A stretch of DNA of 64,000 nucleotides from Patescibacteria group bacterium (GTDB taxonomy: Bacteria > Patescibacteriota > Patescibacteriia > CAIXNZ01), in the NCBI GenBank assembly GCA_028714455.1, contig JAQTMG010000002.1, forward strand, positions 102,047-166,046, given 5' to 3'. Every line of letters begins with the position of its first letter. The first letter of the stretch is position 1. Position numbers and translations under genes: made by a program. The notes beneath the pieces were generated by a model, which had not been told where the DNA came from, did no database searches, and saw only the letters and a program-made list of their open reading frames with translations. Below, in pieces: positions 1,832-30,221 of the stretch.

Positions 1832-2083
1832 AAAAAATCGGGGATGAACTGGGCAAAAATTCATCCCCGCAGACAAGGAGGAGTGTTTCTCTATTTATTT
1901 TTTATATAGCCCGCTCCAAGAAAAAGGGGGGGCCAAATCGACGTGGTGGTTGGGCCGTTTCACGAGGGGAGCCCGAGGTACGCCGATTTGACCCCGTCCC
2001 AAAGGAGTATGATTAATTTACTACATGTGATATTTTCTGTCAAATGATTGAATTTTTTTATTTTTAGTGATAAATTATTATAT

Positions 2084-25544: not shown

Positions 25545-25979
25545 CTAGTTCATTAAAACTTTCCCGCCCAAATCAACAATAAAATCAGAAATATCATCAA
25601 TTTTCTTGGCTTGAACTGGACTAATAATATCTTCAGCCAGAATTTCAATTCTTTCAAGCGCCTCTGTTAACTTTTGTTTACCCCCAGCACCCAAAATAAC
25701 ACTGCGCACCCTGGCGTCATCTTCTTGCGGCCCATTTTTGATCAAATGGACCTTTTCCATGGGCAAGAGTAGGCGAGTGACACCTGAAGCGGTTAAACCA
25801 ATCTTATCAGCCAGATCAACTCGTCGCATCTTTTGATCCTCGGCTTGACTTAAATGATAGAGAATTAAAAATTCGCTAAAACCTAAACCACCCAAGCCGC
25901 GATCTAATCGGGCATTTAAAATGGCCTGGGTTTTGGCCATGTTTATTAATAGTTTTACTGCTGAACTGACTTTTTCCAT
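25545..25979 (-). CDS. MarR-family winged-helix transcriptional regulator
   Basis: Winged-HTH-like core LILYHLSQAEDQKMRRVDLADKIGLTASGVTRLL. Confidence 0.6.
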   Translation of the reverse strand: MEKVSSAVKLLINMAKTQAILNARLDRGLGGLGFSEFLILYHLSQAEDQKMRRVDLADKIGLTASGVTRLLLPMEKVHLIKNGPQEDDARVRSVILGAGGKQKLTEALERIEILAEDIISPVQAKKIDDISDFIVDLGGKVLMN

Positions 25980-26029
25980 AAAAATTGTAGTTAATAAATA
26001 CTTGATAAGTCAAGTATATACCAACTAAT

Positions 26030-26430
26030 TATAATGTCAAATAAAAAAGCACACCATTTTGAATGTCTGGTGTGCTTGAGGTACCAACACGGAATGTTTC
26101 ATCCTTCCTCTGGGGCAGTTGGCGTGCCCGTGGCTTATGCCACCTGTTGTTTTCCACTTTCGTGGGCGTTCGGCTTGTACATCCGCAGGGGGAACAACAG
26201 CTATTCCCCAAGAAACAACACCATTGTCCTACTAGGTGCAGCTAGTCCCGACTCGTTTACGGGAGTGCCTCCTAAGGATGTTATCTCTCTGCGGATATGT
26301 CCACCATCACCCCGTAGCCTTGCTCTGATTGTTTTTGGCCTGTCAGAGTAGGTTTTGGTGGCCGGTCCATTACGGAAACGAGATTTGTCAGGCCGTTATG
26401 AAATTCAGGTTCTTGTACATTAACACCTCC
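26030..26430 (-). ncRNA. GC-rich structured RNA candidate with a 10-codon SD-led mini-ORF at its 5' end
   Basis: On the minus strand: SD AAAGGAGGTG then ATG (MYKNLNFITA), followed by about 330 nt of GC-rich paired sequence ending in GCACACC...GGTGTGC plus T6. The 105-aa ORF on the plus strand lacks a SD and is unlikely to be coding. Confidence 0.35.
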
Positions 26431-26495
26431 TTTGTTTTTTATAATATCAAAAAATCGCCAGAAAGGCGATTTTTTTAGATCTTCAATATTATTTT

Positions 26496-26654
26496 TTACT
26501 TTTTGAACGCAAAAGACAAGAGCATGATGGTTAAAGCATTAAGAATCACCAATATTAGCGCTGTTTGCCATTTCTCCGCAAAGGGATTTCTTAAAATATA
26601 AACCGTGTAGATTATTGCAATAATTGCCGCGCCGATAAAATTTCCTTTTACCAT
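26496..26654 (-). CDS. small hydrophobic peptide (52 aa)
   Basis: Two predicted transmembrane segments. No SD. Confidence 0.25.
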   Translation of the reverse strand: MVKGNFIGAAIIAIIYTVYILRNPFAEKWQTALILVILNALTIMLLSFAFKK

Positions 26655-26806
26655 AATTTTATATTTATTTAGTTATACTATTGTAAAAGCGCCTGGGCTC
26701 GCTGTGCCTGCGGCACATCGCTCGCCCTTCGAATCCCAACGCAAACAAAGCAGTTTGTTTGCTCCCCCTCGGTTGAAGGGTTAAATTACTTAAAAATTTA
26801 TCGATG

Positions 26807-26881
26807 TGGCTCCGGGGGTGGGATTCGAACCCACGACCAAAGGATTAACAGTCCTCTGCGCTACCACTGCGCTACCCCGGA
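26807..26881 (-). tRNA. tRNA-Asn(GUU)
   Basis: On the minus strand: UCCGGGG acceptor, D-arm GCGC-AGTGGTA-GCGC, anticodon stem GAGGA/TCCTT with loop CTGTTAA, T-arm GTGGG-TTCGAAT-CCCAC, CCA encoded. Confidence 0.85.
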
Positions 26882-28209: not shown

Positions 28210-29127
28210 ATGTATATATATTGTCCCCCCAAACCAATTGAATTAGAACTCACCGACGAGTGGGGTTTTAGAATTAGACAAAAAGCAGCCGAGTACATCG
28301 CCGCTAATCAAAACCGAACTGGCGCGGAACGAGGAAGCTCCGAAGAACAGGGATTTGGCGCACTTGCTGAAATGGTTATCCGCAATAAGTTGGGTATGCC
28401 AGAAATTAATCCGGAAAGCCATCCCCTTGGTTATGACCTTTTACTTCCTTCTGGCGTTAAAGTTGACGTAAAGTGTCGTGGCGGCTCACTCCCATTTAAA
28501 GAAGAATATGAAAGTGACGATGGAATTAAGAGGGAAGCAAAACACAATTTTTTTGCCCGCCAAATTCATGATGAAAATTTAGATACGGATATTTATGTAA
28601 TGACCCATCTTGAAACGCCAAAGAATAGAGTACTGCCCGGCACTACGCGACAAAAAAAATGGATACTATATATTTGTGGCTGGGTATCAAAAGAACGCGT
28701 ATATAAAGAGGGGGTTTATTTGCCGCGTGGTTCGCTGACAGAGCAAGGGAGAACCTGGTTCACTTATCGTGGCCAAGAGATTGAATTTTATAATCGTAAT
28801 CTTAATGGTCTCAATAACATTAATGACCTTATGAGTATTGAGTTAGCAGATGTGGAAAAGGACAAAGTCCGTGGAGGAGACTTAAATTTAACATCCGTCG
28901 ATGCTGTAAGAATCACCCATGACCTTATAGGGCGTGGCGTTTTGACAAAAGAACATCTGGCCTTTATCCAAAGGGATACTGGTCTGGAAAAAAACACAAA
29001 GCCCATCTTACATGCTAATCAATATTTCCATTTATTGAAATATCTTAAGAAAAAAGGTGCTGTCACGGACACGGAAATTGAAAAGGCGCGCCAGATCCTT
29101 CAAGAAGAACCATACGCGGGAATCTGA
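28210..29127 (+). CDS. putative Type II restriction endonuclease (PD-(D/E)xK fold)
   Basis: GYDLLL...VKVDVKCRG matches the PD...(D/E)xK pattern. It converges on and overlaps an adjacent DNA methyltransferase gene. Confidence 0.5.
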   Translation: MYIYCPPKPIELELTDEWGFRIRQKAAEYIAANQNRTGAERGSSEEQGFGALAEMVIRNKLGMPEINPESHPLGYDLLLPSGVKVDVKCRGGSLPFKEEYESDDGIKREAKHNFFARQIHDENLDTDIYVMTHLETPKNRVLPGTTRQKKWILYICGWVSKERVYKEGVYLPRGSLTEQGRTWFTYRGQEIEFYNRNLNGLNNINDLMSIELADVEKDKVRGGDLNLTSVDAVRITHDLIGRGVLTKEHLAFIQRDTGLEKNTKPILHANQYFHLLKYLKKKGAVTDTEIEKARQILQEEPYAGI

Positions 29128-30221
29128 AATAGCTTCAGTTTATTATTTTCTATTTTTTTATATAGCGTCTCGGCTTCTTTGATGCGCTGTTTAGAGACTG
29201 CCACGTAATCCGTTCGATATTTTTTAAACAAATAGACCTCTTGATTTTTTTCAATCCCAATATATTTTCTATTTTCCAAAACCGCTGCCACAAGAAAACT
29301 GCCACTTCCGCAAGTGTTATCTAGAACTATATCACCTTCTTTAGTGAATGTACGAATAAGATATCGACCAAGCTCTACCGGTTTTTGTGTAGGATGATAG
29401 ACTCTTCCCTCGCTCTCGGCGGTCTTGAAATAAACCACGTCAGTTGGATATCTTTCGCCATTACTTTTTACCTCAACTGCTTTAAAATCACCATAAGACC
29501 CAGTTAGCTGATCTTTTCTAAATCCTTTATTGTATGGCTCCCCAGGAGTCATTTGTGGATTATATATAGGCTGATTTTTATAAAAAATACATACATCTTC
29601 ATGTCTGCGAAGTGGCTGTCTTCTTGAGTTTAAAAAATTCGTTGGCTTTGACTTAACCCAGGCTATCTTGTATTTAAACAGTTTGGGTCTGGATAACATT
29701 AAATTTGCGGTAAATAATCCCTGGCTCGTCAAAGCAATAACGCCATTGTCTCGAATAACTCGTTCATAATGTTTCCACAATTGATCAAGAGGAATGACGC
29801 TATCCCAGTGATTTTGTGTTGTACCATACGGCAGATCGCACAAAATCATATCTATTGATTTGGGCGGAATATCATTCATTACTTTCAGGCAATCACCTTC
29901 AATCACGCGATTTTCGAAATATGATATTTCCTTTTCGGTTCTATTAACTTTAATTTCAGGCTCCTCAAAATTAAAATTTTTTCTTAAATACCAGTGACAA
30001 TAAGTATTTATCGGCAATCCTTCCTGTCGTGCACGACATTTAAGCTCGAGATAAGAATTCGTTCCAAGCAAATTACGCAGTTCGCTACTTCCAAGGTCGG
30101 CGATATTTTTATATAAATCTTTATTCCTTTTACCAAAAGCTAAAATAAGTCCTTTCGCTTTTGAGCTGATCTCTTTGCGATCGGAAAAATAGACAGCTTT
30201 GAAAATTTGGTTATCTCCCAT
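29100..30221 (-). CDS. DNA methyltransferase, beta class (N4-cytosine or N6-adenine)
   Basis: Motif IV DLPYG precedes motif I VLDNTCGSGSF, the order found in the beta group. Confidence 0.75.
   Translation of the reverse strand: MGDNQIFKAVYFSDRKEISSKAKGLILAFGKRNKDLYKNIADLGSSELRNLLGTNSYLELKCRARQEGLPINTYCHWYLRKNFNFEEPEIKVNRTEKEISYFENRVIEGDCLKVMNDIPPKSIDMILCDLPYGTTQNHWDSVIPLDQLWKHYERVIRDNGVIALTSQGLFTANLMLSRPKLFKYKIAWVKSKPTNFLNSRRQPLRRHEDVCIFYKNQPIYNPQMTPGEPYNKGFRKDQLTGSYGDFKAVEVKSNGERYPTDVVYFKTAESEGRVYHPTQKPVELGRYLIRTFTKEGDIVLDNTCGSGSFLVAAVLENRKYIGIEKNQEVYLFKKYRTDYVAVSKQRIKEAETLYKKIENNKLKLFQIPAYGSS

Follow-up and report, generated by a model that had tools for sequence, protein, structure and literature searches.

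A candidate family of structured RNA with a Shine-Dalgarno-led 5′ end near rpoD and tRNA-Asn in Patescibacteria

Genomic locus and expression signals

The locus described here belongs to a 64,000-nucleotide stretch of DNA from a Patescibacteria group bacterium, referred to below as the window, and lies between a tRNA-Asn gene (26807-26881, minus strand) and a MarR-family gene (25545-25979, minus strand), both of which bear out the neighbours named in a first-pass annotation made from the letters alone. The product of the MarR-family gene matches the Pfam MarR models just under their gathering cut-off and is 100% identical to a database entry (P0001) named as a MarR-family regulator from a Patescibacteria group bacterium. 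A near-consensus promoter for this gene, TTGACA-16-TATACT, overlaps an 18-nt palindrome (25984-26040, minus strand), and the motif TATATACTTGACTTGTTAAGTAT, which is conserved upstream of MarR homologues at L008, L012, L013, L015 and L017, is probably the autoregulatory operator of the MarR-family gene. Common neighbours of the homologues are TspO/MBR genes and ABC genes that encode two ABC_tran domains.

On the other side of the locus, a hydrophobic ORF of 52 aa (MVKGNFIGAAII...) follows tRNA-Asn at 26496-26654 (minus strand). An ORF of the same length and with the same starting residues, also placed after tRNA-Asn, occurs at the related locus L019 (6342-6500, plus strand), and the frame probably encodes a real small membrane protein; no gene is called for it on an identical Logan contig, and the protein collection does not contain it. 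Immediately 3′ of the tRNA-Asn gene, about 100 nt of GC-rich sequence (26690-26790, minus strand) contain two hairpins; this stretch has no counterpart in L019, where a plain terminator hairpin is found, and no repeat in the window or the fetched loci. Beyond tRNA-Asn and hydrolase genes, a 305-aa ORF without a Pfam match converges on an N6/N4 DNA methylase gene, the 3′ ends overlapping (28210-30221), and the two may form a restriction-modification pair.

Between these flanks, an RNA of about 396 nt is predicted on the minus strand at 26041-26436, its ends being deduced from a promoter (inferred transcription start) and a terminator (end of the U-run), and full-length homology linking it to four other loci (L019, L020, L021 and L026). 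All the sequence features listed in the first-pass annotation for a minus-strand structured RNA of about 390 nt were found in place. An extended -10 element, TGaTATTAT (26441-26449, minus strand), aligns with TGTTATAAT in L026 and L019; in the window and L026 it has the form TGnTAT(A/T)AT and directly follows an upstream terminator hairpin, and transcription would start about 7 nt downstream of it. In the window this hairpin lies between A/T runs (26444-26480, strand unspecified; inverted repeat I3), its L026 equivalent standing directly before the promoter, and it resembles a bidirectional terminator, which would end the unit of the 52-aa ORF and set the RNA apart from it. At the 3′ end, the strong terminator noted at first reading is an intrinsic one (26043-26077, minus strand; inverted repeat I19), with a 10-bp stem formed by AAGCACACCA (26077-26068) and TGGTGTGCTT (26056-26047) and followed by T6. 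This hairpin is kept in all homologues, with double changes at alignment columns 397/429 and 398/428, and the L026 copy is also called by a terminator scan. With its own extended -10 promoter and its own terminator, the RNA, which is single copy in the window, appears to be an independent transcription unit.

The strand is fixed as minus by the one-sided T-run together with the predicted folding energies: the minimum free energy of the minus strand is -134.9 kcal/mol (z = -4.47), a value equalled by none of 100 shuffles, while the plus strand shows no clear excess over shuffles (z = -1.58). The locus had also been described as lying outside the usual AT-rich composition. Its GC content (0.50-0.56) does exceed the window mean of 0.40; however, it is not distinctive within the window, as about 20 other stretches, most of them inside long ORFs, reach 0.55-0.66, so that composition alone does not mark out the RNA locus.

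The antisense reading frame

The longest ORF at the locus, 105 aa, runs antisense to the RNA on the plus strand (26034-26351). As the first-pass annotation had remarked, inspection reveals no Shine-Dalgarno sequence upstream of 26034, and the conserved protein that would have spoken for this strand was not found. A word-based search returned no homologues, and a full HMMER scan against 1.8 billion representatives gave three weak matches that switch frame along their length; one relative, P0121, begins with similarity to the second plus-strand frame of the window (NVSSFLWGSWRARG) and goes over to the first (RICPPSPRS.ALI). Such frame-hopping similarity indicates conserved non-coding DNA read by chance ORFs. 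A search with the pseudo-protein alignment returned four unannotated ORFs (P0121-P0124), which have no Pfam domain and whose only source name is "hypothetical protein". Moreover, in the homologues stops cut the antisense ORF short or break it up, and there is no gene call for it on the identical Logan contig L001. The possibility that the ORF is a real protein gene whose RNA-like surroundings are incidental, for which its length and the three weak matches could be cited, thus has practically no chance of being correct; the frame is best regarded as spurious, and the protein reading as effectively refuted already. P0121-P0124 themselves are antisense translations of the RNA (one named "hypothetical protein" by JGI, the rest unnamed) and hence misannotations, and frame-hopping pseudo-proteins of this kind in databases can be used as a handle for finding RNA homologues.

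Distribution and conservation

The comparative search in relatives, in which a lack of homologues would have counted against the RNA, recovered four further distinct full-length homologues, L019, L020, L021 and L026 (nhmmer E about 1e-46 to 1e-63), the first three, with E-values of 3e-46 to 4e-63, through the contigs of the pseudo-protein relatives P0121-P0124. A scan of JGI metagenomes with a two-block DNA pattern built from invariant stretches produced 23 matches, three of them true (L026 and duplicates of L019 and L020) and 20 due to chance, and a subsequent nhmmer profile search recovered only the same four loci. Scans of viral contigs gave nothing real, the only two matches to the two-block pattern both being chance, and blastn of the window RNA against phages and plasmids gave no real match. 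The family therefore looks rare and confined to one Patescibacteria clade, as judged from the collections searched, and no paper on structured RNAs specific to Patescibacteria was found in a literature search.

The alignment of the five sequences (454 columns) spans the whole RNA with a mean column identity of 81%; the flanking DNA cannot be aligned. Among the invariant runs are GTGGAAAACAACAGGTGG, GCCACGGGCA, CCAACTGCCCCAG, GGATGAAACATTCC, CTCTGACAGGC and ACGAGT. Pairwise identity of the RNA ranges from 70 to 90%, compared with 71-80% at the nucleotide level for rpoD from the same genomes (47-61% at third codon positions; RpoD is 78-87% identical in amino acids among the source relatives), which points to purifying selection on the RNA that is no weaker than on a core gene.

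The genomic setting of the family is defined by rpoD and tRNA-Asn. At 16 related loci collected by their MarR gene (L003-L005 from a contig scan and L006-L018 from a protein search and locus look-ups; MarR protein 48-75% identical), no trace of the RNA was detected, which shows MarR to be unsuitable as an anchor. The RNA goes with rpoD and tRNA-Asn: it is never more than about 1-2.5 kb from the rpoD 3′ end of a dnaG-rpoD unit and always near tRNA-Asn, with orientation and intervening genes differing between loci. This synteny with rpoD may simply reflect close relatedness. The tRNA-Asn gene itself varies among these genomes: tRNA-Asn(GTT) at L019 (5631-6245, plus strand) and L026 (9521-10137, plus strand) has its anticodon loop interrupted by a group I intron of about 555 nt, and the gene has no intron in the window and L020. 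The intron carries a 125-aa ORF at both loci, with a weak HNH match in the L019 copy, and ARAGORN misses the split genes.

Some of these features would suit a selfish or defence RNA, for example a CreT-like toxin whose mini-ORF serves as a trap for ribosomes or tRNA, or an element linked to the tRNA-Asn locus. The RNA is missing upstream of all sampled MarR homologues (at L008, tRNA-Asn stands directly before the MarR promoter with nothing between), the tRNA gene close to it harbours a mobile intron in L019 and L026, and its Shine-Dalgarno-led mini-ORF with a non-conserved peptide, described below, recalls CreT-type RNA toxins, whose ORF works by engaging the translation machinery rather than through its peptide. 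Nevertheless, this account is very improbable, because the RNA is single copy in the window, the syntenic neighbourhood across relatives points to vertical inheritance, and no phage match was obtained by blastn, the two pattern matches in viral contigs being chance. CreT is, in addition, a small RNA with tandem rare codons and CRISPR-derived antitoxins; the present RNA is far larger, and no tandem rare codons, CRISPR locus or antitoxin partner were seen. Other candidates of this type were also rejected: an integrated mobile element, since the locus is syntenic in relatives; a DGR template or repeat family, since a second copy is absent; and pairing with tRNA-Asn, since the RNAduplex energy is no better than that of shuffled sequence.

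The 5′ Shine-Dalgarno sequence and mini-ORF

A few nucleotides from its inferred 5′ end, the RNA carries a Shine-Dalgarno sequence, AAAGGAGGTG (26424-26433, minus strand), for which a duplex of -16 kcal/mol with a generic anti-Shine-Dalgarno sequence is predicted. It is followed by a mini-ORF (26388-26420, minus strand) with ATG at 26420, the peptide MYKNLNFITA and a TGA stop at 26390-26388, so that the Shine-Dalgarno-led ORF of 10 codons reported at the start of the RNA stands in every part. GGAGG is present in all five homologous sequences, an ATG lies 3-6 nt past a 7-nt GGAGGTG/GGAGGAG element in each of them, indels notwithstanding, and an ORF of 6-10 codons is found at every 5′ end. Elsewhere on the RNA strand stops occur in all three frames at varying places, and the 5′ mini-ORF is the sole recurrent ORF.

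A conserved peptide sequence was not found among the five mini-ORFs, only close relatives agreeing with one another. Three relatives share the pattern MNVxTA (MNVNTA in L026, MNVQTA in L020 and MNVKTA in L019), and the peptide otherwise drifts in sequence and length, as in MYKNLNFITA of the window and MRKIFTKQPD of L021. In the window, the ancestral ATG is now CTG, and a new in-frame ATG has appeared 12 nt upstream, adjoining the Shine-Dalgarno sequence. L021 has lost the ancestral ATG and has a shifted frame; there, a new ATG adjoins the Shine-Dalgarno sequence, and a new UGA 3 nt past the old stop restores an ORF of 10 codons. The presence of the ORF, its spacing from the Shine-Dalgarno sequence and the position of its stop are thus maintained, and the peptide itself is not.

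This pattern bears on the question of whether the peptide is the product, that is, whether the transcript is an mRNA or dual-function RNA that encodes a micropeptide of 6-10 aa ahead of a long structured 3′ UTR. The strong Shine-Dalgarno sequence and ATG in five of five sequences and the shared MNVxTA would agree with such a role, which is nonetheless quite unlikely: the window and L021 peptides conserve neither sequence nor length relative to MNVxTA, the C-terminal "TA-stop" overlaps a nucleotide block that is conserved even out of frame (L021), and the strongest conservation lies outside the ORF. SgrS/SgrT, RNAIII/hld and SR1/SR1P likewise combine a non-coding RNA with a small ORF, but their conserved peptides exceed 20 aa, whereas the peptide here has 6-10 aa and is not conserved.

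The stop codon is held in a nearly invariant block, ACGGCCTGAC-AAATCTCG (26379-26396, minus strand; nearly all columns invariant), and four of the five sequences place it within the nearly invariant ACGGCCUGACnAAUCUCG. In the RNAalifold prediction, the stop-codon block pairs with the 3′ strand GUUGGU (helix P1), just before the terminator. An alternative partner is the stem B loop CAGGCC, with a pairing kept in four of five sequences and its terminal pair lost in L021. Candidate partners thus exist for the block ACGGCCUGAC, with covariation absent.

L021 has a second, weak match (E 5e-4) at 1926-1983 (minus strand), to positions 1-60 of the RNA profile; it covers promoter, Shine-Dalgarno sequence and ATG and sits upstream of a 110-aa gene, which indicates that the 5′ module of the RNA resembles an ordinary strong gene start.

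Consensus fold

The RNAalifold consensus of the five sequences is multi-branched, with 98 pairs in 15 helices, and 94.8% of all cells in the predicted pairs are canonical. Double changes occur in 13 pairs, against 4.9 +/- 1.5 in column shuffles (none of 500 reaches the observed number) and 2-4 in a partner-sliding control, in a test where the structure was derived from the same five-sequence alignment and the shuffles ignore phylogeny. Coming from five fairly close relatives, this covariation is suggestive, good but not rigorous.

Stem B (26301-26361, minus strand; helices 3 and 4) is formed by CCACCA...TGGTGG around CCT/AGG and CTCTGA/TCAGAG. Its pairing is complete (100%), double changes are seen at columns 108/163 and 116/147, and its loop, CAGGCCAAAA, is nearly invariant. 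The stem C domain (26179-26298, minus strand; helices 5-9) is closed by a helix between ATCCGCAG (26296-26289) and CTGCGGAT (26188-26181), an inverted repeat (I12) that substantiates the long-range complementarity pointed out in the first-pass annotation and now has covariation support. The domain contains inner helices, a hairpin with the invariant loop ACGAGT and a hairpin GGGGAAT...TTCCCC, and shows double changes at columns 177/283, 178/282, 188/250, 192/237, 196/233, 205/222 and 207/220. The 3′ domain (26082-26170, minus strand; helices 10-13) consists of four short hairpins, CCAC-GAAA-GTGG, GTGGCAT..GCCAC, GGGCA..TGCCC and GGA..TCC, followed by GTTGGTA. The first of these has a GNRA loop, which changes from GAAA to GCAA in L020. 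The longest invariant runs of the RNA fall in this domain, whose invariant linkers are GTGGAAAACAACAGGTGG and CAGAGGAAGGATGAAACATTCC, the latter taking in the last hairpin.

Several invariant loops and linkers are complementary to one another (GGCCUG with CAGGCC, CCAAC with GUUGG, and CUGUU with AACAG), which hints at pseudoknots and a compact fold. The loop CCAAC in particular is complementary to GTTGG, and a C-to-U change in L021 gives a G-U pair. These candidate pseudoknots are neither supported nor refuted by the alignment, because both sides are almost invariant.

Across the five sequences, homologues, conservation and compensatory changes were all found, a combination that points to a conserved structured non-coding RNA.

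Relationship to the downstream genes

The order of elements, with a Shine-Dalgarno sequence and short ORF (in five of five sequences) followed by structure and a terminator, is also the classical layout of a translation-sensing leader, or attenuator, in which the progress of a ribosome on the mini-ORF would determine whether transcription stops at the 3′ hairpin or reads through into the downstream gene. A co-directional gene comes next in five of five loci, and RNAalifold pairs the stop-codon strand with the segment just before the terminator, as such a device might require. However, a downstream gene or operon of consistent function was not found at the five loci: the genes that follow are MarR in the window and, at the others, a 62-aa ORF and then MliC and an ABC transporter, a 245-aa membrane protein, a PIF1 helicase and a 126-aa protein. 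As these are unrelated to each other, the RNA does not serve a single type of gene as its leader. The MarR-family gene of the window is equipped with a conserved promoter and operator of its own, and both promoter and palindromic operator are kept in relatives without the RNA. Moreover, about 300 nt of conserved multi-domain structure far exceeds what an attenuator needs, inspection by eye reveals no convincing antiterminator that could rival the terminator stem, and the sequence of that stem is itself conserved. An attenuator is accordingly unlikely.

Comparison with known RNA classes

The first-pass annotation had recommended a search against Rfam for RNase P, tmRNA, SRP, 6S, riboswitch and large ornate RNA models. 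The search was run and none of these classes matches. With Rfam 15, at gathering thresholds and at E <= 10, nothing was found on the RNA in the window, its 411-nt core or two homologues. The method was working, as shown by group I introns detected in neighbouring DNA: the RF00028 model finds genuine introns in tRNA-Asn of L019 and L026 (62-67 bits), which served as a positive control, and has no match on the RNA itself (window and two homologues). Since no suggested class matches, the RNA would be a structured RNA of no described family.

The individual classes give the same picture. For tmRNA, the ARAGORN calls in the window and the homologous loci are all tRNAs, and no model of the Rfam tmRNA clan matches at E <= 10. 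For RNase P, no covariance model matches the window or two homologues at E <= 10; an apparent 9-nt identity to E. coli M1 RNA falls in positions that vary among the homologues and was dismissed as chance. SRP RNA and 6S RNA have no Rfam match, and the consensus is multi-branched with 15 helices. T-box and other riboswitch models give no match at E <= 10, and the coherent downstream gene typical of riboswitches was not found, the downstream genes being heterogeneous. A T-box had been considered from a UGGUACC motif and was rejected, as the motif occurs in the window only and the covariance model is negative. The OLE, GOLLD, ROOL, HEARO and raiA models have no match at gathering threshold or E <= 10. 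A CsrA sponge was also set aside, with only about three GGA motifs counted by eye.

Another reading is that the RNA is a highly derived housekeeping RNA (RNase P, 6S, tmRNA or SRP RNA). Its size, strong conservation and core-gene position near dnaG-rpoD would fit, and any canonical genes elsewhere in the genome would lie outside the 64 kb covered. This possibility is distinctly improbable, for besides the absence of any Rfam match even at E <= 10 (window and two homologues) and of any tmRNA found by ARAGORN, no tRNA-like domain, RNase P P4 signature or 6S rod with a bubble is recognised by inspection. The covariation-supported helices form a multi-branched fold, and the family is limited to a few close relatives, whereas a housekeeping RNA would be expected to be detected throughout the phylum.

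The RNA is of the kind of large conserved bacterial RNAs of unknown function and differs from every named family tested. In length (hundreds of nucleotides), multi-domain organization, covarying stems, invariant loops and junctions, and a gene context that does not reveal function, it resembles the large orphan RNAs OLE, ROOL, GOLLD, the raiA motif and HEARO. ROOL and GOLLD often lie near tRNA genes, as the present RNA does. On the other hand, OLE, ROOL and GOLLD are larger and their Rfam models do not match, and the large orphan RNAs lack the conserved Shine-Dalgarno sequence, ATG and mini-ORF start of the present RNA, which is limited to a few Patescibacteria. tmRNA (ssrA) is similar as a structured RNA of about 360-400 nt with a short ribosome-engaged frame (translation being predicted here). 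However, it has no Shine-Dalgarno sequence and ATG of its own, whereas the frame of the present RNA lies at the 5′ end with both; ARAGORN and Rfam are negative, and inspection finds no tRNA-like acceptor and T-arm domain. 6S RNA is likewise non-coding, and a link to sigma-70 could be imagined from the constant proximity of rpoD, but 6S RNA is a long hairpin with a central bubble, whereas the present RNA has a multi-branched fold and is about twice as long, with no Rfam 6S match. The coupling of a canonical translation start to a non-coding body is unusual.

Proposed mechanism and implications

Based on these observations, the locus very probably holds a genuine, independently expressed structured RNA gene whose family is not in Rfam 15. 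Taken as a whole, with the mechanism outlined below, the best explanation is an independent structured RNA of about 390 nt belonging to a new, narrow Patescibacteria family, an account given a somewhat better than even chance of holding. In this model, function would reside in the folded body, which would act in trans and is probably either a compact pseudoknotted RNA or a component of an RNA-protein complex. The 5′ end would be shielded by a ribosome that loads on the mini-ORF, in analogy to 5′ Shine-Dalgarno stabilisers, the Bacillus and Gram-positive precedent for ribosome-based 5′ protection. In cryIIIA STAB-SD and ermC-type leaders, too, a strong Shine-Dalgarno sequence lies a few nucleotides from the 5′ end and the peptide of the short ORF matters less than ribosome occupancy. 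Those elements are carried on mRNAs before the protein gene they control, whereas the present RNA has a conserved non-coding body of about 330 nt and its own terminator, and the genes that follow are unrelated. Alternatively or additionally, a ribosome stopping at the UGA in ACGGCCUGACnAAUCUCG might transiently open the contacts of that block, in which case translation would gate the folding of the RNA. As a best guess, ribosome loading at the 5′ end would keep the RNA stable or control how it folds.

In the tiny genomes of Patescibacteria there is little space for non-essential sequence, and an RNA of 390 nt kept as tightly as the sigma-70 gene probably has an important role. It is unusual in joining a fully canonical translation start with a dispensable peptide and with a stop codon set in a nearly invariant block, which suggests a direct link of the ribosome to the fold of a non-coding RNA. 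It is conceivable, if rather doubtful at present, that the family represents a new class of ribosome-engaging RNA, pseudoknotted and gated in its folding or activity by translation of a mini-ORF whose stop lies in the tertiary core. If true, the ribosome would serve as the input of this non-coding RNA, which would be specific to an ultra-small symbiotic lineage and tied to the region of rpoD and tRNA-Asn.
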